A DNA stretch of 64,000 nucleotides, from assembly GCA_964568715.1 (NCBI GenBank), contig CAZMQU010000004.1, positions 11,089 through 75,088 of the forward strand, given 5' to 3'. The position numbers and the translations under genes are program-made. The notes beneath the pieces were generated by a model. The model made no database searches. It worked only from the letters and a program-made list of their open reading frames with translations, and was not told where the DNA came from. Below, piece after piece: positions 4,398-49,004 of the stretch (the stretch's first letter is position 1; each line of letters begins with the position of its first letter). Source of the stretch: an uncultured Halanaerobiales bacterium. Lineage in GTDB: Bacteria > Bacillota > Halanaerobiia > B1SED10-174.

Positions 4398-6542
4398 ATG
4401 GGTATGCAAAACATTTTTTTCTCCGATGACAATTGCCAGTTCAATCCCCCAAAGGATCCGACTATTTGTCAACAAAAAAAATTATTGGCAGAGGCAACAA
4501 ATATAGAAGCCAAGGTAGATATTCTATTGAGATTTTGGGTGGCCAATCGAGGCAAATATGTTGATTTTACAAGGAAGGTTGCGGAAAATATTGTCGAGGA
4601 GGCCAAGGATACAAATAACCATTACGCTCTTGGTTGGGGATATTTTATTCACGCTTGGTTAAAGCTGGACTTTGACCATTACAACGACAGTTTTCAATAT
4701 TTTAAGGCTGCAGAAGCTGAATTTGACAAGTGTGGAAATATTAAGGCGCAAGCCCGGGTAATGAATGGCATGGGAACAGCTTATCGATATTCCGGATATT
4801 TTGATAAGGCCTTGGAGCAATACTTACTGGGCTTGGAGTTGGCGGAAGAAGTAGGGGACGGCGAAATGATAGGGACACTTGGATTAAATATCGGAACCCT
4901 TCTTATTGATTTAAAGCAGTACGATGAGGCGGTACGGTATTTTAAGAAAACACAATTTTCTGATGAAATCAGTTCCATTAATAGGGCTATAGCAATACGC
5001 AATATGGGCAAAGCGCATAGATGCATGGGTGATTTAGATACGGCCGAGAAATATCTTAAGGAAGCTTTAAATCTGTGTGAAGTGTCAAACTATACCCATT
5101 TGAATATTTATTGTTATTTGGAGATGGGCTATTTGCGACAGTTTCAAAATAGGCTGGAGGAGGCTAAGGATTTATTTAAAAAAACAGTGGAACTGGCCTC
5201 CGATCAAGATATGTTAAAGGTTGAAGCTTCCGCCCTTTTGCAATTGGGGATCCTAAAAAAGCTTGAGGGTTATCCCCACAGGGCTTTGGAGAAACTACAA
5301 AGGGCTTTGGATATATTTGAAGAAATTGGTTCCAGGAACAATAAAGCCAGGACCTTAAGAGCTATTTCCAAGGTATACGATATGATTGGCGATTGTGAAA
5401 ATGCTTATAAAAAACTAAAGGAATACAAGAAGTTGGAGAGTGATGTATTTAATGAGGAGACAGTCAATAGGATAGGGGTTCTTAAGGTTCAACAGGCTCG
5501 CCGGGAAGATATCATTTATAAGGATCTTTACAACAGGATTAATACAATCAGCCAAATCGGTCAAGCCATAACTTCGACTTTCAATATCAAAGAAATTGGT
5601 AACATCGTTTATAAACATATCAAAAATTTGATGAAGGCCGACAACCTAGCTGTGGGTCTTTTCTCTGAGTCCCAAAAGGAAATTATCTACCGGATTTTCA
5701 TAAAAGACGGCGAATACATGTATGATTTGGTTTTGCCTATAGAGGAAAACAATAAGCTTGAGGGCAGATGTATAGAGAATAAAGAGGGATTCATTATTAA
5801 CGACCTGACGGACCGCCCAGATTATTTTGAAGGACGGGAAAAGTGGGGCAGTGTTTTTGCTGACAAGAATATCAGGTCCATAGTTTGTAGCCCCTTATCT
5901 TTGCGAGGAAACATGGTGGGTCTGATTACTGTTGAAAGTACCGAAAAAGATGCTTATTTACCTCACCATGCCGATATTCTAAGAGCCCTGGCAGCCTATA
6001 CGGCAATTGCTTTGGAAAATGAAAAATTGTTTTCACATGTTAATGCATTGGCTACAACTGATCCGCTTACCGGCTTGATAAATCGTCGGAGCATATTTAT
6101 TAAGGCAGATGAAGAATTTTCCCGTTACAAGAGATACAAGGAACCCCTGTCAATTGTTATGATAGACATTGATAAATTTAAAACAATCAATGATACTTAT
6201 GGACATCCTGTCGGGGATGCTGTCCTAATAAAGGTTGCAGAGGCTTTTGGGGCTGCAATCCGCAATACTGATGCCCTAGGACGTATCGGAGGCGATGAGT
6301 TTCTGTTGCTTTTGCCCAATACTGATTTGGAGGGGGCAATGGCAGTTGCAAAGAGGGTCCATGAGGCGGTTTTAAAAAAGCCTTATAATATTGAAGGGCA
6401 AGAGATTAGTATAAAAACCAGTTTGGGGGTGGCAGAACCTAACTTGACCGATACCAGCATTGCTGACGCTATAAAAAGGGCCGATTTTGCCCTTTATGAA
6501 GCTAAGGAAGCAGGTGGGAATACGATAAAAAAAGCCAAGTAG
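4398..6542 (+). CDS. TPR-repeat / GAF / GGDEF diguanylate cyclase
   Basis: 714 aa. The N-terminal half is TPR-like. The C-terminal region has a GAF-like segment and GGDEF motifs RIGGDEFLLLL and RYKRYKEPLSIVMIDIDKFKTIND. It is a paralog of the truncated gene at 2..1180. Confidence 0.85.
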   Translation: MGMQNIFFSDDNCQFNPPKDPTICQQKKLLAEATNIEAKVDILLRFWVANRGKYVDFTRKVAENIVEEAKDTNNHYALGWGYFIHAWLKLDFDHYNDSFQYFKAAEAEFDKCGNIKAQARVMNGMGTAYRYSGYFDKALEQYLLGLELAEEVGDGEMIGTLGLNIGTLLIDLKQYDEAVRYFKKTQFSDEISSINRAIAIRNMGKAHRCMGDLDTAEKYLKEALNLCEVSNYTHLNIYCYLEMGYLRQFQNRLEEAKDLFKKTVELASDQDMLKVEASALLQLGILKKLEGYPHRALEKLQRALDIFEEIGSRNNKARTLRAISKVYDMIGDCENAYKKLKEYKKLESDVFNEETVNRIGVLKVQQARREDIIYKDLYNRINTISQIGQAITSTFNIKEIGNIVYKHIKNLMKADNLAVGLFSESQKEIIYRIFIKDGEYMYDLVLPIEENNKLEGRCIENKEGFIINDLTDRPDYFEGREKWGSVFADKNIRSIVCSPLSLRGNMVGLITVESTEKDAYLPHHADILRALAAYTAIALENEKLFSHVNALATTDPLTGLINRRSIFIKADEEFSRYKRYKEPLSIVMIDIDKFKTINDTYGHPVGDAVLIKVAEAFGAAIRNTDALGRIGGDEFLLLLPNTDLEGAMAVAKRVHEAVLKKPYNIEGQEISIKTSLGVAEPNLTDTSIADAIKRADFALYEAKEAGGNTIKKAK

Positions 6543-20346: not shown

Positions 20347-21723
20347 TTAAAAATTCAGAAATTTTTGGTAGATATCAGCGTTTAAATCATTAATGCTTTG
20401 ATCGGTTGCCAGGTATTCATCTTTACCTGCAAGCATGGCTTCTTTTATCTTGGTTTCATATTCTTTGCTTAAGGCATCGAAATTTTCATAATTGGGCGGT
20501 ACCAAAAAAGTGTAGTCCTTGTACATTTCGATGACGGTTCGGAGGAGCTTTTGCAAATTTTCATTTTCAATGTAATCGATTTCCTGTTGCATATTGACTT
20601 CAAAAGCTTTCTTTGTCACCGGTAAATAGCCGGTGGAAGAAACGAAGCGCATATTCTGTTCAGGTTGGGTAAACCATTTTAAAAACAGTGCGGCGGCGTA
20701 TTCTTTTTCCGGGGTCGCCCTACCGATGCACATACCGCCTCCCCGTTGGAGGGCAATCTTTTGGCCTGCCTCGAAGGTCGGGTAGGGCAGAACGGTAAAG
20801 GAAACTTTTTCAGTTGTATTGTCCGGATATGTTACTTGATCACCGTAAAACAATATGCCTGCTGTGGAGCCGGTTGAGCAAAGAATTTCGCCTGTTCGCA
20901 CCAAATCGGAGGAGTAGCCGGTAGTAATCGCATAACCGCCGGTAATAGCCGGCAAAACTGTGCAATCCCAAATATGACGGAAAATGTTCCCATGTGTTTC
21001 CAGTCCTTTGGCTGTAACAAAGTCGCCGCCTAACTGGGCAGTGCCAACCTGAGCAATATTGAACCAGGAATCCGCCGTAAAGAAGGTAGTACCGGCTTTA
21101 TAATGGGATGGTGATTGAGAAGTAGCCCATTGGTGATAGTCTGTAGCGACTTTGCCCAAGCCCTCAAAGGTAGCTAGATCTTCCAAACCGGCGCCCGTTG
21201 CAGCGGAAAAACGATCAAACAGAGTCTGGTTGACGAAAAGAACCTCGGTGGATTTGGCGACAGGAAAGACATAGAGATTGCCATCTGTAAGGCATCCTTC
21301 GGCAATAAATTGGGGCAAGTAGGCCTCCAGCTCCTTGTCTGTAAAAAAATCGTCCAGCGGAACGATTAAATCTTCCTCGACCAGGGTTAGGGCTGTCTTG
21401 GGGTAAGTTGTGACAATATTGGGCATCAACGGGGCACCGGGATCGCCGGCAGCGATTAGGAACAGCTTTTCTTGGATGCTGGCTGAGCCGGATATGGATG
21501 TAACGTTGACCATGACCCCTTTTTTGCGCCCTAAAGAGTTGTTGAATTCGTCAACCAATGCATCCATTGCACTCTGCATTTGGCCACCGTAATTGTGCCA
21601 CATAGTAATAGTCACGGGATTTTTGGGATCGAGCTTAACGCCATTGCAGCTTGTAAGTAAAAAGGCTAAACTTAAAAAAATAACCGCCAAGATAAGTATT
21701 TTTCTAATGGATAACACCCCCAT
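20347..21723 (-). CDS. ABC transporter substrate-binding lipoprotein (family 1, carbohydrate-type SBP)
   Basis: Lipobox LLTSCNG. It is about 458 aa and the overall pattern is SBP_bac_1-like. It lies directly upstream of, and co-oriented with, the membrane LuxR regulator, with a 30-nt gap. Confidence 0.75.
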   Translation of the reverse strand: MGVLSIRKILILAVIFLSLAFLLTSCNGVKLDPKNPVTITMWHNYGGQMQSAMDALVDEFNNSLGRKKGVMVNVTSISGSASIQEKLFLIAAGDPGAPLMPNIVTTYPKTALTLVEEDLIVPLDDFFTDKELEAYLPQFIAEGCLTDGNLYVFPVAKSTEVLFVNQTLFDRFSAATGAGLEDLATFEGLGKVATDYHQWATSQSPSHYKAGTTFFTADSWFNIAQVGTAQLGGDFVTAKGLETHGNIFRHIWDCTVLPAITGGYAITTGYSSDLVRTGEILCSTGSTAGILFYGDQVTYPDNTTEKVSFTVLPYPTFEAGQKIALQRGGGMCIGRATPEKEYAAALFLKWFTQPEQNMRFVSSTGYLPVTKKAFEVNMQQEIDYIENENLQKLLRTVIEMYKDYTFLVPPNYENFDALSKEYETKIKEAMLAGKDEYLATDQSINDLNADIYQKFLNF

Positions 21724-21961
21724 AAATTGGTGAATATGTTTAATAACTATAAGTTCAGGCTTAGAGTTACTTTTAAAATATATGTTTTTGAAAAATTGAA
21801 GGATTACAAAGGTATTTGTCTAGCAAAATTTTTGGGGCTGACTATTTTTAATAATTCCATATTTCGATAATGAAATCCTGCCTTTTGTAGATATATTAAT
21901 TAGTATTTGCCGATCTGAAGTCGATTGAAGTTGATTGTTAAAAAGAAAAAACCTTGCAAGA

Positions 21962-21998
21962 GAGAAAAGATTCTATTGCAAGGTTTCTGTGTTATTTG
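21962..21998 (-). terminator. Rho-independent terminator on the minus strand, downstream of the peroxiredoxin gene
   Basis: The hairpin ACCTTGCAA-(16-nt loop)-TTGCAAGGT is followed, on the minus strand, by TTTTTTCTTTTT. Confidence 0.45.
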
Positions 21999-22138: not shown

Positions 22139-22750
22139 TTAGTCATCGAAAGCTTCGTTGACTTTCCATTCTTTCCACACATTACCTACCAGGTTAGGAT
22201 TGGGCTTAAGAGTATTTTTACCCGGTTTCCAGCCGGAAGGTGTAGCTTCGGTACCTTTCGATTTGCGGACCAGTTGGAAGGCTTGAATTTGTCTGATGGC
22301 TTCGGAAATATTTCTACCGACAGGCGGGGTCAAAACTTCAAAAGCCTGGATGATTCCTTCGGGATCGATAATGAACCTGCCCCGTGTTTCTGTACCGCTG
22401 TCTTCATCATAGATACCATACATTTTTCCTATGCTGCCATCTTGGTCGGAAAGCATGGGAAAGGGTATATCTTTGCCGATCATCTTGGAAAGTTCATGCT
22501 CGTTCCAAATTTTGTGAACATAAATGCTGTCTACGCTGACAGTTAAAACTTCCACGCCTAAATCTTGAAATTCAGAATATTTTTCAGCAACTGCTGAGAC
22601 TTCAGTAGCTCAGACAAAGGTGAAGTCCCCCGGATAAAAACATAGTAATACCCATTTGCCTAGATATTCCGACAGCTCGATGTTCATAAATTTCCCTTTG
22701 TGAAAGGCGGGTGCGGTAAAATCGGGTGCTTTGGAGCCAACTTTAACCAT
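22139..22750 (-). CDS. prxU: Selenocysteine-containing peroxiredoxin (PrxU-like, 1-Sec type). The in-frame UGA (plus coordinates 22610-22612) replaces the peroxidatic Cys.
   Basis: ORFs 22610..22858 and 22139..22555 are in the same frame and separated only by TGA. The joined translation reads [38 protein letters not shown]. The canonical AhpC/Prx motif is FYPLDFTFVCPTE. The resolving-Cys region reads [12 protein letters not shown], so that Cys is absent. The likely start is the ATG at 22750 ([14 protein letters not shown]), which has AAAGGAGGAAAT 7 nt upstream. Confidence 0.8.
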
Positions 22751-23229
22751 CGTTCTTATTTCCTCCTTTGGGCTTTGATTATTCACCGTTACAGCCTTTG
22801 AAACTTCTTTTTTCTTTATTGCGGGTCTTTGACAGCCCGGCCCAAACTCTTCGGCCAATATAATTCACCCCTTTTAAAAATATTTTTACACCGGAATAGA
22901 TTGGTTTTCTTTATAATGTTTACTTATTTATAATTTCCATCAATAGATATAAAATCCTCTTTATTTGTTTTTTCAATGACTGAATTGATATTATACAATC
23001 GATAACATAAAATGTTTGTTCAATTACCGATAAAATAGCCGGTAACCGTGGCTGCTAGGATGGAAAATAAATGGTTTAATAAGAGAAGCAGGAATGTGTA
23101 ACATACCCTTGTAAAAGATTGCCACTATGGGTAAGATATAGTTGAGAAGTTATACGATATAAAAATTATATAAAATATGAATATTAAGGGGGAATTACCA
23201 TAAAGAGGACTAAGAAGCAATTAGCTGTA

Positions 23230-24852
23230 GTGATCGTGGCAATAATAATGACCCTTGTATTCCCTTTGGGTGTTTTCGGTAAAAAAGCTAACCCTAGCGT
23301 TGCACTTGTATTGGGGGGAGGTTCAGCCCGTGGTTTGAGCCATATTGGTTTTATCAAAGCCATGGAAGAACAGGGGATTCCAATTGATCTATTGGTTGGG
23401 ACAAGCATGGGCAGTATTATTGCCGGTATTTATGCTGCCGGTTACTCGACTGACAATATGATACATATCTTCTCAACTTTGGATATGGCCTCCCTTCTCG
23501 ATATTCCAATGCCCCCCCTGGGCGGTGTTCTTGATACTGCCGGTTTACAATTGTATCTGGACAAGATGCTGCGGGGAATGTGCTTTGATGAGTTGTCCAT
23601 CCCTTTTTATTCAGTAGTGGTTAACCTGGGTACCGGTAAAGAGGAGGCATTGAATGAGGGAAAGGTTAGTACTGCCATTCAAGCCAGTATGTCTATTCCC
23701 GGTGTTTTTATGCCGGTTGAAATCGATGGACAACACTATGTAGACGGTGGTTTGAAAAATCAGGTTGCTGCTAATGTGGCCGCTGACAAGGGTGCCGATG
23801 TCATAGTTGCCGTATGTTTGGAGCACGATTATCAAGAGCCGAATTTTAAAGATATAATAAATAACTTACGCATGTCCTTGACCGCCATGATGGATGGCTA
23901 TGTTGATATACATACCGCCATGGCCGATGTGCTAGTCTTACCTGAAGTGGATTTTGGTTCATCTATGGACTATTACCGGGTGCCGTATTTTGTTACTCAA
24001 GGTTACAAGGCCGGCAATGAGTATGCTACGGAGATAAAAGAGGCCATCTTGGCCCAAAATCCTTCCTATAAATTCATTCCTTATAAGCAACCCGGTTGCA
24101 GTACCGGTGAATTGAATCAATTGTTGCGAGAAGCGGAGCTTGCTGCAGCCACACTGCCCAAACGTTTCACTTTGAAAACTCTTTTGACTTACGATAGAGA
24201 TTACAATTTTACAAAAATGGGCTTGAAGTTTACCCATGGCCCCCTAAATTTGTTTGGTGTCGGTTATCGTTATGGGTTCGATTCGCAGGATGGTGGGCAT
24301 GAATTGTTTTTGGATTGGGGGACCGAAAAGACTGGAGCGGCCGATCTTTATCTCCGATTAAACCCTAATAGAAGTAAGCCTTCTTTTGGGTTTTCTCTCC
24401 GAAGCCCTGAATATAATAACCTTGCTTTAGAAGCAGCGTATGTATCTCAAGGGGAAAAGGCTTGGCGATTATCCGTTACCAATAATTCACTTTTGAATCT
24501 CCCTCGGGTAGTTGCAGGGTTATCATTGCAAGTTCACAGGCTTCGTACCGATGAAACCAGTGTACCGTATGCAGAAAAAATTATTTTGAATGCTATGCCA
24601 AGGTTAAGAATATATCCTTGGGAAGACAAGCGTTTTGCCTTGGGAGCTGCCTTAATAAGACCGTACCTTTTAACGGGTGCTTCTATAGGCACAAAGATCA
24701 GCAAATTTGAACCTATTGTATCCATCAAAACCGGCATGGGCTTGGATTTCCAATTGATGGGCCTTTATCCGGGTACGTTTTTTGCCGGTATTCAATTTGA
24801 CGGTACCGGTAAGTTAAAAGGGAAGTTCGAATTAAAGATGGGTGATCTGTAG
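23230..24852 (+). CDS. Patatin-like phospholipase (PNPLA) with a C-terminal beta-strand-rich domain of about 250 aa
   Basis: Patatin motifs are present: the oxyanion motif LVLGGGSARG, the GxSxG motif GTSMGS, and DGG (YVDGGL). The C-terminal half shows alternating hydrophobic residues and is G/Y-rich, which looks beta-barrel-like. The start is uncertain. A signal-like sequence, KRTKKQLAVVIVAIIMTLVFPLGVFG, is in frame just upstream of the annotated GTG. Confidence 0.8.
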   Translation: MIVAIIMTLVFPLGVFGKKANPSVALVLGGGSARGLSHIGFIKAMEEQGIPIDLLVGTSMGSIIAGIYAAGYSTDNMIHIFSTLDMASLLDIPMPPLGGVLDTAGLQLYLDKMLRGMCFDELSIPFYSVVVNLGTGKEEALNEGKVSTAIQASMSIPGVFMPVEIDGQHYVDGGLKNQVAANVAADKGADVIVAVCLEHDYQEPNFKDIINNLRMSLTAMMDGYVDIHTAMADVLVLPEVDFGSSMDYYRVPYFVTQGYKAGNEYATEIKEAILAQNPSYKFIPYKQPGCSTGELNQLLREAELAAATLPKRFTLKTLLTYDRDYNFTKMGLKFTHGPLNLFGVGYRYGFDSQDGGHELFLDWGTEKTGAADLYLRLNPNRSKPSFGFSLRSPEYNNLALEAAYVSQGEKAWRLSVTNNSLLNLPRVVAGLSLQVHRLRTDETSVPYAEKIILNAMPRLRIYPWEDKRFALGAALIRPYLLTGASIGTKISKFEPIVSIKTGMGLDFQLMGLYPGTFFAGIQFDGTGKLKGKFELKMGDL

Positions 24853-33175: not shown

Positions 33176-34873
33176 ATGGGGAGTTGTCCATTGGTTCTTG
33201 GAAGGGTGAGTGCTGTGAAAAAGAAAAAAAATACAACTATCCTGATCATTTTGTCTTTACTTATGGTCGTTTTTAATTTGTTGGGTGTTTCAGTAATTTA
33301 TGCTTCCCCACCGTCTGTTGCTTTGATTTTAGGCGGTGGTTCAGCCCGGGGTTTAAGCCACATAGGGATGATCGAAGCCTTTGAAGAAAATGGTATACCC
33401 ATCGATATGTTGTTGGGGACAAGTAGCGGGAGTATTATAGGGGGGCTATATGGGGCCGGATTTTCCATTGAAAACATGATTGATATTTGCACTAATTTGG
33501 ATATGCACTCCTTAATTGAGATTCCCTTGCCGCCCCGTGGTGGTTTTATTGATTCCGGGCGACTTAGATATTACTTGGACATTATATTGGAGGGGATAAC
33601 CCTCGAACAACTATCAATTCCTTTTTATCCGGGTGTTGTTGATTTAGGTACGGGTCGGGATGTTGCCTTGGACCAAGGTAAGCTTAGTGCCGGTATCCTG
33701 GCCAGTATTGCCATTCCCGGAGTTTTTCCGCCTGTGGAAGTTGGCGGCAATTATTATGTCGATGGTGGTTTAAAAAATCTGGTCCCGGCAAATCTGGCCT
33801 CTGCTTTGGGAGCAGATGTCATTATCGGCGTATCTATGGGGCAAGAAAACCGAGTTTATAAGGATCCCGAACACAAAAGTATTTATAACAATTTGCGAAA
33901 AACCATCAATGCGGTTATGGTGGGGTATTCTGCGGTTAACACTGCTGAAGCTGATGTTCTTTTTGTGCCTGACATTGACTTGACACACATATACGACTAT
34001 GAAAATGTTCTTTATTTTGTTGAACGCGGCTATCAAGCAGGCATTGACCACATGGACGAAATTAGGGCGGCTATCCTGGCCAGAGATCCCGATTTTGTGT
34101 TTAAGCCCTACAAGCAAAAGGGAATCAGCAGTGTTGATTTGGCCAACCGGATTGAAAAGGCGAAGCGTGAAACAGAAAAATTTCATGGCCCACTTACGGT
34201 TAAGCCCCTTTTGGGTTTTGATGATAATTACTACTTTTCAAAAATTGGTGCAAAGGTTACGGCCGGTCCTTTAAAACGCTTTGGAGTTGGTTACCGCTAC
34301 GGTTTTAACGACGATGAAGGAGGCCATGAATTATTTGTCGATTGGTCCCATCCCAAAATTGCCAATCTCGATACTTATTTTAGAAAAAGTCCTAAAAGAG
34401 AGAAGATCACTTGGGGCCTGGACCTCAATATTCCTTTATACAAGAAATTTGCCTTGGATGCTGCTTTTGTTACGCAGGGTTCTAATGCTTGGCATGTGGC
34501 AGTTAGAAATGAAGCTTTCCTAAATTTTCCCCATTTTAACGGCGGTTTGGCCTTAACTCTTAAGGGCCTGCGTTCAGAAGGGGGTAATCTCTCCAACGAA
34601 GGGAAGCTTTCCTTGAGTTTAAAACCACAGATAAAGATTTTGCCTTGGGGCGAAAAGTGGCTTCCCCTAGGGCCTTTCCCCCTTAAACCCTACTTCTTGG
34701 CTGCTGCCGAAATGGGAACTCCTTTGAATGATTTCTCATTGCAGACGACTTTTAAAGTCGGCTTGGGAACCGACTTCAGAATCTTGGGCTTATTCCCGGG
34801 TGAACTGTCGTTGAACGGTTATATAACAAATGAAGGTCAATTTTTTGGCCAGATTGGATTAAGAAGAAAATAA
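33176..34873 (+). CDS. Patatin-like phospholipase, a paralog of 23230..24852, with a C-terminal beta-rich domain
   Basis: Motifs ALILGGGSARG, GTSSGS and YVDGGLKN. The N-terminal signal-like segment is KKKKNTTILIILSLLMVVFNLLGVSVIYAS. The C-terminus aligns with its paralog (KVGLGTDFRILGLFPG against KTGMGLDFQLMGLYPG). The start is uncertain, with a GTG at about 33212 as an alternative. Confidence 0.8.
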   Translation: MGSCPLVLGRVSAVKKKKNTTILIILSLLMVVFNLLGVSVIYASPPSVALILGGGSARGLSHIGMIEAFEENGIPIDMLLGTSSGSIIGGLYGAGFSIENMIDICTNLDMHSLIEIPLPPRGGFIDSGRLRYYLDIILEGITLEQLSIPFYPGVVDLGTGRDVALDQGKLSAGILASIAIPGVFPPVEVGGNYYVDGGLKNLVPANLASALGADVIIGVSMGQENRVYKDPEHKSIYNNLRKTINAVMVGYSAVNTAEADVLFVPDIDLTHIYDYENVLYFVERGYQAGIDHMDEIRAAILARDPDFVFKPYKQKGISSVDLANRIEKAKRETEKFHGPLTVKPLLGFDDNYYFSKIGAKVTAGPLKRFGVGYRYGFNDDEGGHELFVDWSHPKIANLDTYFRKSPKREKITWGLDLNIPLYKKFALDAAFVTQGSNAWHVAVRNEAFLNFPHFNGGLALTLKGLRSEGGNLSNEGKLSLSLKPQIKILPWGEKWLPLGPFPLKPYFLAAAEMGTPLNDFSLQTTFKVGLGTDFRILGLFPGELSLNGYITNEGQFFGQIGLRRK

Positions 34874-42833: not shown

Positions 42834-43123
42834 AATCAAAAGCCGGAGCGCGGGTAAAAAGATCTGTAAATTCTTTTGTTAACCCAAGGCTGCCAAAAAA
42901 CAGGAATTTACTTCGATAAAACTTACCGGATTTCCCGAATTTGCCCTAGAAAAGCTTTACTTTTAAATCTCTTTGCAGTATCATAAATATTGGAGTAAAA
43001 AATCTGATATTTTTTGCCTAACGGTCCAAAATTATCTGCTTAAATGGGGTGGTTGGAACCGTTGTTAAGTTCTTGTTGAACATAACGGTTGTTATAAAAG
43101 TAATATATGGAGGTGTATTCGTA

Positions 43124-43630
43124 ATGGTCGTAAATGGAAAAGTAACTTGCAATACTACAGCGACAGACGTACTCGAACAGGTTGCAACAATTGCAGCCAG
43201 ATGGAGAGACAGGCCTGATATGATTATTCCTGTTCTCCACGAGGTACAGACAATTGCCGGTAATGGCTTACCAAAGGACGTAGTCGATGTAGTATCCCGT
43301 GAAATGAGGGTTCCCCTGTCGGATATATACGGCGTGGAAACCTTTTATTCTTTCTTTTCGACGCAAAAACGGGGAAAAACAGTGATTAGACTATGCAAAA
43401 GTGCCCCTTGCCATGTAAAGGGCAGTAAAAAGGTCTTGGAAGCCTTTGAGAAAGTTTTAGGAATCAAGGCCGGCGAGACTACTGAAGACGGAGATTTTAC
43501 TCTCGAAACCTGCGAATGCATTGGTGCTTGTGATGTTTCTCCGGCAGCACTTATCGACGGCGTTGTTTATGGTGACTTAACTCCTGAAAAAGTAGAAAAA
43601 CTAATAACCACACTTAGGAAAAAGGAGTGA
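43124..43630 (+). CDS. NADH-dehydrogenase 24-kDa-subunit-like [2Fe-2S] protein (NuoE/HoxE/FdsG family)
   Basis: A thioredoxin-like 2Fe-2S motif spans CKSAPCHVKG...CIGACDVSPA. The start was set at the ATG at 43124, which has GGAGGTG 8 nt upstream. Confidence 0.85.
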   Translation: MVVNGKVTCNTTATDVLEQVATIAARWRDRPDMIIPVLHEVQTIAGNGLPKDVVDVVSREMRVPLSDIYGVETFYSFFSTQKRGKTVIRLCKSAPCHVKGSKKVLEAFEKVLGIKAGETTEDGDFTLETCECIGACDVSPAALIDGVVYGDLTPEKVEKLITTLRKKE

Positions 43631-43634
43631 AAAC

Positions 43635-44894
43635 ATGGAAGAAATGAGAATTCTACTGGATAAGGCGGGGGAGATATCTCCTATTAGTGCGAAAGAGTAT
43701 GCCGATGTCGGTGGCTATGAAGGCTTAAAAAAAGCTTTGCAAGCACCTGAAAAAATTGTTGATGTCATTAAGGCCTCCGGTGTCCGTGGTCGTGGTGGAG
43801 CAGGTTTCCCGGCCGGATTGAAGTTGTCTTTTACGGCCAATACGCCGGCTGATCAAAAGTACATCGTGTGCAACGCTGATGAGGGCGAACCCGGAACCAA
43901 TAAAGACCGGGTAATAATGGAGCAAGTACCCCACCGCCTTTTGGAAGGTATGGCCATTGCGGGTTTGGCGGTAGGCGCCAGCAAAGGTTACATTTACTTA
44001 CGAGCGGAGTATCCTTATGTAGCGACTATCTTAGCGGATGCCCTTGCCGATGCCCGTGCCAATGGTTATTTGGGTGAAAATATTTTAAACAGTGGTTTTG
44101 ATTTTGATGTAGAGCTTTTTATCGGTGCAGGGGCTTATGTTTGTGGTGAAGAAACTGCTTTGTTGAATTCAATGGAAGGCAAAAGGGGAGAATCAAGGTT
44201 TAAGCCCCCATACCCCGGTGTTGAAGGTCTATGGGGTAAGCCAACGGTGGTCAATAATGTGGAGACCCTAACCAACTTTCCCGTGATTATGGTAAAAGGG
44301 GCTGAGTGGTATAGAAAAATCGGAACTGAAACATGCCCCGGTACAAAATTGTTTACCTTAAGCGGTAACATCTCTAATCCCGGTGTCTATGAGTTCCCCG
44401 TAGGTACGACGATTCGCAGCCTTTTTGAAGAGGTTGGCGGCGGTTGCCCGAATGGTAAAAAGCTTTATGCTGTCCAGACCGGAGGAGCTTCGGGTAATAT
44501 AATTCCTGCTTCCTTATTGGATACCCCCATGGATGTCGATTGTTGTGCTGAAGTTGGTGCCACCTTTGGTGCGGGGGACTTGATGTTCATCGATGAAGAC
44601 AATTGCTTGTTGGATGTATTGGAGAATTTGATGGAGTTTTTTGCCCATGAGTCTTGTGGTAAATGCACTCCCTGCCGGGAAGGTAATGTCCAGCTATTGG
44701 GGCTTATTAGGAAATTTAAAGCCGGAACCGCCGAGGAAGGCGATTTGGACTTGATGGTTGAGTTGGCCAATTTTATGGTAGAGGGAAGCCTCTGCGGTTT
44801 AGGTCAAGCTTCGCCGAACCCAATTTTATCGGCAGTCCGTTTTTTCCCGGCAATATTCACATTAAAAAACGAATCTAAAGGGAGGGTTAGCTAA
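43635..44894 (+). CDS. NADH-binding 51-kDa-subunit-like flavoprotein (NuoF/HoxF/FdsB family; FMN, NAD(H), 4Fe-4S)
   Basis: Glycine-rich NADH/FMN motifs GRGGAGFPAG and GAGAYVCGEETALLNSMEG. The 4Fe-4S motif is ESCGKCTPCREG. Confidence 0.9.
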   Translation: MEEMRILLDKAGEISPISAKEYADVGGYEGLKKALQAPEKIVDVIKASGVRGRGGAGFPAGLKLSFTANTPADQKYIVCNADEGEPGTNKDRVIMEQVPHRLLEGMAIAGLAVGASKGYIYLRAEYPYVATILADALADARANGYLGENILNSGFDFDVELFIGAGAYVCGEETALLNSMEGKRGESRFKPPYPGVEGLWGKPTVVNNVETLTNFPVIMVKGAEWYRKIGTETCPGTKLFTLSGNISNPGVYEFPVGTTIRSLFEEVGGGCPNGKKLYAVQTGGASGNIIPASLLDTPMDVDCCAEVGATFGAGDLMFIDEDNCLLDVLENLMEFFAHESCGKCTPCREGNVQLLGLIRKFKAGTAEEGDLDLMVELANFMVEGSLCGLGQASPNPILSAVRFFPAIFTLKNESKGRVS

Positions 44895-47569
44895 TGATAA
44901 AGGTTGTTATTGACGGTCAGCCTCTGGAGGTAGAAAAAGGTACTACAATTCTTGAAGCCTGCCAAAAGCTGGGTATTGAAATCCCAACCCTTTGCCACTA
45001 CAACCACCTTGCTCCGGAGGGGTCTTGCCGGATTTGCGTTGTAGAAGTTAAAGGAACAAAAGATTTGCAGGTTTCTTGTGCCACTCCTTGTGCAGAGGGC
45101 ATGGAAGTGACTACTATGAACGAAAGAATTTACACTTTTAGGAAAATGATCATTGAGTTGCTTTTGGCCAACCATGATACAGATTGTTTTTCCTGCCCTG
45201 CCGTAGGTGAGTGTGAATTATATCGGTATGCCGTAGAGTATGGTGTTGAGGAAACAAGGTTTCCCAGGACAAAAGAAATTGAACCCAAAGACCTTTCCAA
45301 CGAATTTTTTGAATATGATCCTTCCAAATGTATTTTGTGTCGTAGGTGCGTACGTGTATGCAATGAATTACAAAGCAACCGTACCCTCAGCCTAAAGAAC
45401 AGGGGCGTAGACACAGCTGTTAGTATACCATTTGATGAGCTTTTTGTTGACAGTAATTGCGTATCTTGTGGAAACTGCGTTTCAGTTTGTCCTACAGGTG
45501 CACTTACAACTAAAGCCAGTAAAAAATATCGCTCTTGGGAGGTAACCAAGACCAGAACGACTTGTCCATACTGTGGTGTTGGCTGCCAATTGGACTTGCT
45601 TGTAAAAGACGACAAGGTTGTTGGTGTTGAACCGGCTGACGGACCGGCAAACCATGGTCTTCTTTGCGTCAAGGGAAAATTTGCTTATGATTTTATAAAT
45701 CATCCTGATCGCCTGACGACTCCTTTGATAAGGAAGGACGGAGTTTTGACCCCGGCAAGCTGGGATGAGGCACTCGATTATGCAGTGAAAGGGATTAAAA
45801 AGGTAAGGGAGGAGAGCGGTCCCGATGCAATCGCCGGTTTTTCTTCCTCCCGGGCAACCAACGAGGATAATTATACTTTTATGAAGATGATGAGGGCGGC
45901 AATCGGTACCAACAATGTCGATAACTGTGCCCGTGTCTGACACGCTCCTACAGTGGCTGGTCTAGCCACAACATTAGGTAGCGGAGCAATGACAAACTCC
46001 ATTTCCGAGTTGGTCGATGCTGAAGTAATCTTTATTATCGGTTCCAATCCCACCGAGGCACATCCGGTTATCGGTGCTCAGATTAGACAGGCCCGCAATC
46101 GTGGTGCCAAGCTGATTGTAATCGATCCAAGGGTAATTGACTTAGCTGAAGAGGCAGAAATCCATCTGCGTATTAAACCGGGAACCAACGTTGCCTTCTT
46201 AAACGGCCTCATGAATGTTATCATTGAAAAAGGCCTTTTAGATAAAGAATACGTTGAAAACAAAACCGAGGGATTTGAAGAGTTAAAAGAAACAGTAAAA
46301 GATTATACCCCCGAAAGCGTGGCGGAAATATGTGGGATAAATCCTGATGACCTGGAAAGGGTTGCCAGATTGTATGCGCCGGCTGAAAGGGCGCCCATTG
46401 TATACTGCCTGGGTGTGACCGAGCATTCAACAGGAACTACCGGTGTTATGTCGGTAGCCAACTTGGCCCTTCTTTGCGGTAAAGTTGGTAAGTATGCTTG
46501 TGGAGTTAATCCCTTGCGGGGACAAAATAATGTGCAAGGTGCTTGTGACATGGGATGTATGCCTTCCGATTATTCCGGTTACCAGAAGGTTGCCAACCCC
46601 GAAGCCAGGGCCAAGTTTGAAAAACTATGGGGAACGAAATTGCCCTCCAATCCCGGCTTAACAAGTACCGATGCTATGAATGCAGCAGCTAAGGGCGATG
46701 TACGTTGCTTGTATATATTTGGAGAAAACCCCATGGTCAGTGATCCCAACCTTAGCAATGTCCAAAAAGCTTTAACCAAGGCTGACTTTGTGATAGTACA
46801 AGATATTTTCTTGACGGAAACAGCAGAATTTGCCGATGTAGTCTTGCCTGCAACAAGCTATGCCGAAAAAGAGGGAACTTTCACAAACAGTGAGAGAAGG
46901 CTCCAGAGGGTTCGGCCTGCTGTTAGCCCAAGGGGTGAGAGTCGTGACGATTGGGCGATTTTCTCCGAAATAATGCATCGTCTTGGTTATGACAACAAAT
47001 TCACCTCTGCCAAAGAAGTATTGGATGAAATTGCTGAGGTAACACCTTCTTATGGTGGCTATAGTTTCGAGCGATTGGAACGGGAGCAGCCCCAATGGCC
47101 TTGCCCAACTCCGGACCATCCCGGAACACCTATTCTTCATGTTGGTAAGTTTGCCAGAGGTGAGCGGGCAATTTTCAAACCGTCTCCCTATGTGCCTTCT
47201 GCGGAACTACCTGATGAAGAGTATCCATTGATATTTTCCACCGGAAGGCTCTTGTATCAATACCATACCACTACCATGACGGGTAGAAGTGAAGGTATTG
47301 CCAATTTGGCCGGCAAACCTTTCGTCGAAATCAACCCGGCCGATGCATCTAAACAGGATATTGTTGATGGTGGAAGGGTAAAGATTGCCTCCCGCCGTGG
47401 AGAAATAGAAGTTGATGCCCGTGTTACGGAGCGGGTTCCTGAAGGCGTTCTTTATATGCCTTTCCACTGGGCAGAAGGGGCGGCCAACTGGTTGACCAGT
47501 GAAGCCTTGTGTCCCATTGCCAAAACACCCGAGTATAAAGTTTGTGCTGCCAAAGTACAAAGGGCTTAA
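44894..47569 (+). CDS. fdhA: Formate dehydrogenase catalytic subunit with an N-terminal NuoG-like 2Fe-2S/4Fe-4S extension. It is a selenoprotein, with in-frame UGA-Sec at 45938-45940.
   Basis: ORFs 44894..45940 and 45953..47569 share a frame and are separated only by TGA. The joined sequence reads NCARV-U-HAPTVAGL. The E. coli FdhH Sec motif is CARVUHGPSV. The N-terminus has the 2Fe-2S motif CHYNHLAPEGSCRIC and two CxxCxxCxxxCP ferredoxin motifs. A long molybdopterin-oxidoreductase body follows. Confidence 0.9.
45953..45969 (+). promoter_or_regulatory. Candidate SECIS hairpin 13 nt downstream of the fdhA UGA (GUGGCU-GGUCU-AGCCAC)
   Basis: A 6-bp stem with a GGU-containing apical loop, positioned as bacterial SECIS elements are. 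The full element is probably longer. Confidence 0.45.
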
Positions 47570-47579
47570 AAAAGAAAAT

Positions 47580-48192
47580 GGCTTGCGATGATATCCGGGA
47601 TTTTAATAGCGCAGTTATCCTCGCCGGTGGTCGCTCCACTCGGATGGGTTTCGATAAGCAACTTCTGTCGATTGATGGGAAAAGGATAGTACAGAAGCAC
47701 ATTGACCTTTTAAAAACCCGTTTTGGGGATATCATGGTGTCCAGCTATACTCCCGAATTATACGAAATGGAGCAGGTTAGGGTTATCTCGGATGTATATG
47801 AAGATGTGGGGCCATTGGGTGGTATCCATTCTGCTTTGGTTAATGCCCAAAGCAATGCCGTTTTCCTGATTGCTTGCGATATGCCACTCTTAAGCCTTGA
47901 CTACATTGATTATATGGTTTCTCGCATGAAGGGGCAGAAAGTAGATGCCTGTGTAACAAGATACAGGCATCACCTGGAGTTTTTCCATGCATTTTTTTGC
48001 AAGTCGGCCCTACCCCTTTTGGAAGAACAACTCGATGCAGGGCAATATTCAGTGAAAAACCTGGTAAAAAAACTTAATGCCCTCATTATTGCGGAAAAGG
48101 ATGCGCAGCCTTATACGAAGGATTGGTCAATATTTACGAGTTTGAATACTCTGAATGAATACAATGCCTATATAAACAAAACAATTAGCTAG
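47580..48192 (+). CDS. mobA: Molybdenum cofactor guanylyltransferase MobA
   Basis: AVILAGGRSTRMGFDKQLL matches the MobA N-terminal GGxSxRMG motif. LIACDMPLL is also present. The start was set at the ATG at 47580. The ORF-track start at 47542 would overlap fdhA. Confidence 0.8.
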
Positions 48193-48260
48193 AAAAAGAC
48201 GATCGGTGCCTTTAACCGGGTTCCGGTCGTCTCCTTTTAAATGCTAGGAGAGGGTGGAAG

Positions 48261-49004
48261 GTGGAGGTTTTTAAGGGAATCGAAATTACAAAAATTGAAG
48301 GCTGTCAAAGTGAAACTGTTATTGATAATGTTGTTGTGGAGTTCAATTTGGAAATTTATTTGAACTGTTCTTTTCTTGTTCGACTTGTTTGTACGCCCCG
48401 TGATCTGGAAGCATTGGTTTACGGCCATCTTTTTGCCCGAGGGATTATCAAGACTCTCGATGACATAGAATCTCTCTCCATTGCAGATGCTAAGGCGCAG
48501 GTTTTCTTGAAGCAAGAAACTTTTCCAAAGGAAAACAGCCCTAAAATAGATTTTAGCGATCCTTTATCGGAAAGGGCGGCCGCTGATTCGAAGGATGTAT
48601 TCCTAAGTCCAGAGGAACTATTTGCTGCCTTGGCATCTTTGGATGCCAATTCGCCTCTTTTTACCGCTACAGGGGGTGTCCACGGTTGTCTTTTGGCCAA
48701 CATCGATGGAAAGCAACTCTTTACCGAAGATTTGGGGCGGCATAATGCGATTGATAAGGTTTTGGGACGAGCATTAATGGCTGGCTGGGATCTGACGGGG
48801 GCTTATTTGGTAACGGGGGCCAGGATTGCTGAGAGCTTGTTGGGCAAAGCCCTCAACAGTGGCCTACCGCTTATAGTATCCCGCTCGGCGCCGACCGTAG
48901 AAGCAGTGAAGATGGCCCGAAAATACAATCTGACATTATGCGGTTTTGCGCGGGGTCGCCGCATGAACATATACAGTGGGTTGCAACGAATAAAAAATAT
49001 TTAA
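48261..49004 (+). CDS. fdhD: Formate dehydrogenase accessory sulfurtransferase FdhD
   Basis: The conserved FdhD C-terminal region is TATGGVHGCLLA...LGRHNAIDKVLG...LVTGARIAESLLGKALNSGLPLIVSRSAPT. Confidence 0.85.
   Translation: MEVFKGIEITKIEGCQSETVIDNVVVEFNLEIYLNCSFLVRLVCTPRDLEALVYGHLFARGIIKTLDDIESLSIADAKAQVFLKQETFPKENSPKIDFSDPLSERAAADSKDVFLSPEELFAALASLDANSPLFTATGGVHGCLLANIDGKQLFTEDLGRHNAIDKVLGRALMAGWDLTGAYLVTGARIAESLLGKALNSGLPLIVSRSAPTVEAVKMARKYNLTLCGFARGRRMNIYSGLQRIKNI

Follow-up and report, generated by a model that had tools for sequence, protein, structure and literature searches.

A PrxU-type peroxiredoxin gene with an in-frame UGA codon and a covarying selenocysteine insertion hairpin in an uncultured Halanaerobiales bacterium

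Peroxiredoxins (Prx) that carry selenocysteine (Sec) at the catalytic position are established bacterial selenoproteins. The enzyme of Eubacterium acidaminophilum (Sohling et al. 2001) is counted among the experimentally verified prokaryotic selenoproteins in a 2026 review, under PF00578 and with the motif TxxU (PMC13188914), and by 2006 Prx ranked fifth by number among bacterial selenoprotein families, its 12 genes coming from anaerobes such as Syntrophomonas, Syntrophus, Geobacter and Alkaliphilus (PMC1794560). Here we describe a further member of this family, prxU, which lies on the minus strand of a 64,000-nucleotide stretch of DNA (the window) from an uncultured Halanaerobiales bacterium (GCA_964568715.1, contig CAZMQU010000004.1, positions 11,089 to 75,088). 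An earlier reading of the letters alone, the original prediction, had proposed a PrxU-type gene with an in-frame UGA at this locus and had correctly named the E. acidaminophilum precedent (Sohling 2001, as cited in PMC13188914). The family to which prxU belongs is already known, curated and fairly widespread, and its recognition here is mainly a matter of correcting the annotation.

Two described systems serve as points of comparison for the hairpin and for the chemistry. In the published model of the bacterial Sec insertion sequence (bSECIS), the loop is 3-9 nucleotides (nt) long, the upper stem has 4-16 base pairs (bp), 16-37 nt separate the UGA from the loop, the minimum free energy is -7.5 kcal/mol or lower, and a G stands at the first or second position of the loop, mostly with G or U after it (PMC13188914 Fig. 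2A). In the mammalian selenoprotein MsrB1, the selenenic acid of Sec95 cannot be reduced by thioredoxin and must first be converted to a selenenylsulfide by a Cys of the flexible N-terminus (PMC1278935).

The prxU gene, its in-frame UGA and its family

On the minus strand, the TGA at 22612-22610 is the sole in-frame interruption between TTG 22858 (or ATG 22750) and TAA 22141-22139. The list of open reading frames (ORFs) shows prxU as two pieces in the same frame, 22610..22858 (82 amino acids, aa) and 22139..22555 (138 aa), and the split noticed in the original prediction recurs in the public record, where NCBI GCA_040436515.1 annotates the gene as fragments of 82 and 138 aa. Two independent assemblies, NCBI GCA_040436515.1 and Logan SRR22941227, contain the same split gene with the same TGA, as does the 216-kb source contig, so a sequencing error at this codon is unlikely; a TGT or TGC at 22610-22612 had been named as the finding that would speak against recoding, and TGA is what these assemblies contain.

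Conservation of the codon extends well beyond these assemblies. A scan of one genome per bacterial or archaeal species returned at least 595 related stretches, of which the best 80 were retained; one of these lacked the search motif and was dropped, leaving 79 loci that together with the window gene make up 80 sequences. The peroxidatic codon is TGA in all 80, and the relatives, 63-82% identical, come from many phyla, among them Bacillota, Desulfobacterota, Nitrospirota, Spirochaetota, Dehalococcoidia and Cloacimonadota. The best species-representative relative of the window protein is 82% identical to it, and amino-acid conservation is equally strong before and after the TGA. Given the number of related stretches and the family's fifth rank in 2006 (PMC1794560), the statement in the original prediction that Sec-peroxiredoxins are rare was too strong; the PrxU family is uncommon overall yet routine among anaerobes.

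For protein scoring, Cys was written at the UGA position. The joined protein matches Pfam AhpC-TSA at 1.2e-39, with a 1-cysPrx_C domain also detected, and against the NCBIfam equivalog NF040737 (peroxi_PrxU; cutoff 270) it reaches 387.5 bits when read from Met37 and 403 bits when read from the TTG start, the longer match spanning positions 3-232 of the 233 in the profile. The next best family, the AhpC model TIGR03137, gives 190.5 bits, under its cutoff of 272. By sequence, the closest solved structures are those of typical 2-Cys Prx and AhpC (E ~1e-47), and a Foldseek search with an AlphaFold (AF2) model places PrxU at a template modelling (TM) score of ~0.9 to 2-Cys Prx/AhpC structures (5zte, 1n8j, 1qmv; 38-42% identity). 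The model, a monomer of a database copy that has W at position 83, has a mean predicted local distance difference test (pLDDT) value of 85, with the core above 90. On the strength of the profile scores and the structural superposition we assign the protein to the Prx1/AhpC fold and to the PrxU family, as had been proposed from the letters alone.

Comparison with the solved structures shows both what PrxU has kept and what it has changed. The fold is that of typical 2-Cys Prx and AhpC (5zte, 1n8j, 1qmv), as are the P-x-x-x-T-x-x-C motif and the conserved Arg; P76, T80 and R159 are invariant across the PrxU family. In alignments with solved 2-Cys Prx structures, their peroxidatic Cys falls on the UGA, exactly where the original prediction had put Sec. 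PrxU differs in having Sec in place of that Cys, in having ATP or TPS in place of the VCP of the resolving Cys (the C-terminal region reads TEATPSGW where the solved proteins show DEVCPAGWKPG), and in possessing an additional N-terminal arm with an invariant Cys. Lacking the resolving Cys of the E-V-C-P motif, PrxU is not a typical 2-Cys Prx despite the common fold. It shares these properties with the PrxU of Eubacterium (Peptoclostridium) acidaminophilum and the family NF040737: the equivalog match covers the whole protein, Sec stands in FTFV-U, there is no C-terminal resolving Cys, and the N-terminal extension fits the first 34 profile positions. We consider it very probable that the locus is one intact prxU gene, encoding a Sec-containing peroxiredoxin of the Prx1/AhpC fold with its UGA read as Sec.

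Covariation in the hairpin and probable selenocysteine decoding

Like the bSECIS consensus and the element of the Escherichia coli fdhF type, the prxU hairpin lies just 3' of the UGA and inside the coding sequence. Its core, UCAGC-AGUU-GCUGA, 13-27 nt past the UGA, was the candidate put forward in the original prediction; it is present, can be extended to 7 bp, and is backed by covariation. In most relatives the stem has 7 bp, and in the window it consists of 5 bp, a C.A mismatch (22598/22583) and 1 further bp. The hairpin starts 10 nt past the UGA, its first loop base is separated from the UGA by 17 nt, and the exposed G-U of the loop is found ~20 nt past the UGA.

With the U of the UGA numbered 1, the stem comprises nt 14-20 and 25-31 around a 4-nt loop, and the proteins are gapless here, so the RNAs are in register. 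Pair 18-27 links two synonymous sites, the third base of a Ser codon and that of an Ala codon, and is A-U in 45 of the 80 sequences, G-C in 30, U-A in 3, C-G in 1 and G-U in 1, with none unpaired. Pair 15-30 is U-A in 56, C-G in 13, A-U in 3, G-C in 1 and G-U in 1, with 6 unpaired. Over the whole stem 98.4% of the cells are paired, compared with 36-72% after sliding the partners by 1-3 columns, and double-sided changes, which are seen at three stem pairs, number 77 versus 21.6 +/- 3.3 in shuffles, none of 500 shuffles reaching as high a value. The third positions of four-fold-degenerate codons are constrained over the hairpin as well, with an entropy of 0.9-1.25 bits as opposed to mostly 1.6-2.0 bits elsewhere in the stretch. 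The covariation establishes the prxU hairpin as a genuine bacterial SECIS.

The loop is AGUU in 54 of the 80 sequences, GGUC in 23, GGUU in 2 and AGUG in 1, so that G22-U23 is invariant while positions 21 and 24 covary (A..U 54, G..C 23, G..U 2). The published bSECIS model notes an N1/N2 pairing, and the covariation found here agrees with it (PMC13188914). We note that pairing of positions 21 and 24 would leave only the invariant G-U unpaired, an unusually tight 2-nt apex.

Measured against the bSECIS model, the window hairpin satisfies the rules for the loop (4 nt), the stem, the loop G and the spacing (17 nt), and it shares with the consensus a stem of 5-7 bp and a 4-nt loop in which U follows G. 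It differs in being very short and, across the family, in the covariation of loop positions 1 and 4 (A..U or G..C). Several results weigh against its identification as a functional element and against decoding of the UGA in this organism. The window copy, with its C.A mismatch, reaches -6.4 kcal/mol, weaker than the threshold of -7.5, so that the fold check suggested in the original prediction comes out in favour of the hairpin on loop, stem and spacing and is marginal on energy. The UGA together with 45 nt gives -7.4 kcal/mol, the family-consensus hairpin -8.0 and the G-C variant -9.5. A 71-nt local fold (-14.2 kcal/mol) is no stabler than shuffled sequence (z = 0), and for this reason the hairpin is judged by covariation instead of energy. 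No Rfam family was matched at either gathering or relaxed thresholds, hairpins this small being poorly modelled. Finally, none of selA, selB, selC and selD is found in the 64-kb window, which holds no tRNAs and no matching families, or in the ~5-7 kb of flanking DNA past each window end that is seen on related contigs.

The search for Sec machinery that had been suggested thus gave nothing in the window or its flanks, and the support for such machinery is indirect: a second selenoprotein gene, fdhA, encoding the alpha subunit of formate dehydrogenase. The ORF lister splits fdhA into 44894..45940 and 45953..47569, which we joined across TGA 45938-45940; the joined protein scores 876.6 bits against TIGR01591 (cutoff 666), and the gene sits in an operon (43049-49004) with nuoE-like, nuoF-like, mobA and fdhD genes. 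It is the only other convincing case in a scan for same-frame ORF pairs split solely by TGA, the remaining pairs having been judged ordinary gene ends or non-coding frames. With its UGA at the canonical Sec site (NCARV-U-HAPT) and a hairpin of its own behind it, fdhA provides good indirect evidence that the host genome has the Sec-decoding trait.

Two explanations that dispense with Sec have to be considered. Were the TGA a nonsense mutation or a sequencing error, prxU would be a broken gene yielding a truncated peptide or nothing, as its two fragments in automatic annotation and the lack of visible Sec machinery in the window might suggest. Against this stand the TGA at the exact peroxidatic codon in 80 of 80 diverged homologs and in independent assemblies, the full amino-acid conservation past the TGA followed by a covarying hairpin, and the second Sec gene in the window; the conservation data effectively refute a broken gene, which we regard as very improbable. 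Translation of UGA as Trp or Gly under an alternative code (code 4 or 25) draws its support from the protein database, where position 83 in 100 full-length relatives is W in 91, G in 1 and a true Cys in 8. Both residues arose artefactually when short contigs were gene-called with codes 4 and 25; the DNA has TGA. Within the window, TGA is the normal stop in 18 of 48 well-supported genes, at ends consistent with their families, and it occurs in frame in just two of the 48, prxU and fdhA, compared with 182 in-frame TGG codons, both occurrences falling at catalytic Cys/Sec sites of known selenoprotein families. Because TGA serves as a normal stop and is found in frame in these two genes only, reassignment of UGA is excluded, and the chance that an alternative code accounts for prxU is close to nil.

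The N-terminal arm, its cysteine and a probable second translation start

The family profile of PrxU holds ~34 N-terminal positions, and the extension that begins at the TTG start fits them, adding 15.5 bits. A Cys is found 63-71 residues ahead of FYPGDFTFV in 80 of 80 loci, as part of CxRP in 79 and of GCxRP in 78, and exactly 8 codons before it there is a start codon, ATG in 68 loci, GTG in 6 and TTG in 3. Gly8, Cys9, Arg11 and Pro12 are conserved in 79-80 of the 80 loci with saturated synonymous codons: Cys9 is TGT in 42 and TGC in 38, and Arg and Pro use all six and all four of their codons, respectively. The arm frame is free of stops in 80 of 80 sequences, the other two frames averaging 1.69 stops, and the linker that follows the motif, 26-34 residues in length, is in frame every time. 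Together these features indicate that the arm is translated and is under selection at the protein level.

In a census of Cys residues in 100 family proteins, Cys9 and Cys73 are the only invariant ones apart from the Sec column, and 80% of the proteins have no further Cys; the canonical resolving region contains a Cys in 1 protein and none in the other 99. Among the 10 nearest relatives without an arm, 5 retain the canonical resolving-position Cys (xCPxxW) and a further 3 carry one nearby, a comparison of N-terminal with C-terminal Cys that rests on these 10 outgroup sequences, the search at 50% identity having given mainly post-TGA fragments and ordinary Prx. In the AF2 model the N-terminal motif has a pLDDT of ~73, and the linker, below 50, is disordered.

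Natural Cys-forms of the protein (P0107, P0109, P0112, P0117, P0120) have a shorter or changed version of the N-terminal motif (MSYCDRP, GCAQP, GCATP). The Sec forms retain CxRP in 79 of 80 cases, and the Cys-forms are too few in number to tie the Arg to selenium chemistry.

The end of the arm carries a second conserved signal. The internal start codon, that of Met37, is ATG in 77 of 79 loci, and GGAG occurs within 27 nt upstream of it in 76 of 80, lying 6-12 nt upstream in 73 of those 76. In these sequences 75 of 76 use GAG for the linker Glu (baseline 32%), the codon before it is AAG in 50 and AAA in 1 (baseline 40% AAG), and the codon after Glu begins with G in 69 of 76 even though the residue may be V, E, A or G. 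All 79 of 79 loci show a match of 5 nt or more to the Shine-Dalgarno (SD) sequence before the internal ATG, and 75 of 79 show one before the upstream start, compared with 1 of 79 for control positions inside the ORF, which have no SD match whatever in 69 of 79 loci. The codon choices indicate that the K-E-E before Met37 is conserved as nucleotides and not as amino acids. A conserved internal ribosome-binding site (RBS) in turn suggests two initiation sites, one giving a 239-aa form with the Cys arm and the other a 203-aa form without it. The E. acidaminophilum protein is reportedly ~203 aa long, the length of the short form from Met37, and two starts would bring this length into line with the long NCBI profile.

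From these observations a mechanism can be proposed. The UGA at 22612-22610 would be decoded as Sec during translation, the prxU hairpin recruiting SelB with its Sec-tRNA(Sec) as in the established bacterial Sec pathway. Sec83, in its P-x-x-x-T-x-x-U site with the conserved Arg159, would attack hydroperoxides and become a selenenic acid, as expected from family membership. Cys9, on the flexible 36-residue arm, would then form a selenenylsulfide with Sec83 that thioredoxin reduces, and the internal RBS before Met37 would supply an additional, arm-less subunit of 203 aa. The model for the Cys9 step is Sec-MsrB1 (Sec95, resolving Cys4), in which a catalytic Sec and a Cys in a flexible N-terminal segment likewise occur together and which depends on thioredoxin (PMC1278935). 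This is a functional analogy only: fold and substrate are unrelated, and the Cys9-Sec83 link in PrxU is a hypothesis. We regard a resolving role for Cys9, with subsequent reduction by thioredoxin, as the likeliest of the recycling schemes considered here, at somewhat less than an even chance. The more inclusive proposal, that PrxU is not a 1-Sec enzyme and consists of two kinds of subunit from two conserved starts, the arm Cys (GCxRP) of the long form resolving the selenenic acid of Sec83 as a selenenylsulfide with oxidation passed on to thioredoxin while the short form has no arm, is a tentative reading of the sequence data.

Two points count against these proposals, namely that Cys9 is also retained in Cys-forms and hence is not Sec-specific, and that the internal SD could serve another purpose. 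The original prediction had called the enzyme a 1-Sec type. The canonical resolving Cys is indeed absent, as it had stated, and the label itself is not established, with Cys9 and Cys73 both invariant. If PrxU were a true 1-Sec Prx, the selenenic acid of Sec83 would be reduced directly by an external thiol or redoxin, and the arm would dock the reductase, regulate the enzyme or bind metal. The missing canonical Cys fits such a scheme, as do the existence of 1-Cys Prx mechanisms and the 1-cysPrx_C domain, the location of Cys9 at the end of a linker predicted to be disordered, and the finding that no dedicated reductase gene is conserved beside prxU in the 79 related loci. It is harder to reconcile with an arm Cys that is invariant under protein-level selection in 80 of 80 loci and 100 of 100 proteins, with the retention of a canonical resolving-position Cys in half of the nearest arm-less relatives and its loss in those with an arm, and with the behaviour of the MsrB1 selenenic acid, which thioredoxin does not reduce unless a resolving Cys is present (PMC1278935); we hold a true 1-Sec mechanism to be conceivable and rather doubtful. 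Cys73, which precedes Sec by ten residues and lies in strand beta3 (LLCFYPGDF), could instead be the resolving residue in place of Cys9, being invariant in 100 of 100 PrxU sequences at a site where many ordinary Prx relatives have other residues. It is, however, predicted to lie in a core beta strand (E69-74, pLDDT >90) and is probably buried, it is also present in the arm-less relatives P0124 and P0128, and it would leave the conserved N-terminal arm unexplained, so that a resolving role for Cys73 appears improbable.

Genomic context and meaning for the family

The features of the locus and of fdhA are collected in Table 1.

Table 1. Positions of the prxU and fdhA features in the window
Feature	Position	Strand	Remarks
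prxU coding sequence, long form	22139..22858	-	239 codons including Sec83; start TTG 22858-22856, stop TAA 22141-22139
UGA, predicted Sec83 (Sec47 in the short form)	22610..22612	-	peroxidatic residue of P76-x-x-x-T80-x-x-U83, here P76-G-D-F-T80-F-V-U83
SECIS hairpin of prxU	22582..22599	-	5' arm UCUCAGC 22599-22593, loop AGUU 22592-22589, 3' arm GCUGAAA 22588-22582
N-terminal arm, 36 residues	22751-22858	-	motif M-x-E-E-x-K-x-G-C-x-R-P, then variable K/E-rich linker
Cys9 codon TGT, N-terminal arm motif	22832..22834	-	candidate resolving Cys
Cys73 codon TGT in LLCFYPGDF	22640..22642	-	second invariant Cys, 100/100 proteins
SD-like AAAGGGGTGA	22865..22874	-	upstream of TTG 22858
Internal SD AAGGAGG	22762..22768	-	codes for K-E-E in the linker; ATG 22750 follows after 11 nt
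Internal ATG (Met37)	22748..22750	-	probable second initiation site; 203-aa short form
Terminator-like hairpin AACCTTGCAA...TTGCAAGGTT, then T-run	21941..21985	-	~155 nt past the stop; putative, read by eye
fdhA, second selenoprotein gene	44894..47569	+	Sec at TGA 45938-45940, motif NCARV-U-HAPT
fdhA SECIS hairpin GUGGCU-GGUCU-AGCCAC	45953..45969	+	-9.7 kcal/mol

In the window, whose GC content is 42%, prxU is a solitary gene, flanked by a divergent patatin-like gene (23230-24852, plus strand) and a gene for a solute-binding protein on its own strand (20347-21723, minus strand). Family scans of the window revealed no thioredoxin system near prxU. The terminator-like hairpin at 21985-21941 was unreported by the scanner, its loop being longer than 8 nt. 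There is no synteny between the window and the related loci, and no cluster of neighbouring ORFs is conserved in more than 8 of the 79. By reading of their sequences, the most frequent neighbours encode a Fur/PerR-like regulator, a NifB/X-like protein and a MinD/Mrp-like ATPase; rubrerythrin occurs in 5 loci, and a disulfide oxidoreductase is also recurrent. The Fur/PerR-like, rubrerythrin and disulfide oxidoreductase neighbours would agree with a role in oxidative stress.

The window also contains paralogous gene sets. Two patatin-like phospholipase genes, at 23230-24852 and 33176-34873 (plus strand), encode proteins of ~540-565 aa, each with a long C-terminal extension. Two genes for TPR-GAF-GGDEF diguanylate cyclases of ~710 aa lie at 5-1180, where the first is cut by the window start, and at 4398-6542 (plus strand), and a related contig (L084 7076-14035) carries two more copies immediately upstream of the window.

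The existence of Sec-peroxiredoxins is established knowledge, and what is added here is formal proof of the SECIS, a second selenoprotein gene and two family-wide features. Two selenoprotein genes within 23 kb are mainly of interest as indirect evidence that the organism has the Sec-decoding trait. For the family, the artefactual W and G residues mean that surveys of peroxiredoxins or selenoproteins built on such gene calls are wrong at the key residue. The translated, Cys-bearing arm and the conserved internal RBS challenge the 1-Sec label and merit the attention of specialists. If the two-subunit proposal is true, it would put the resolving residue at a site new to the Prx1/AhpC subfamily and give the oligomer a built-in mixture of isoforms; and if the arm is the resolving element, this would explain how a Sec-Prx can be recycled by thioredoxin.

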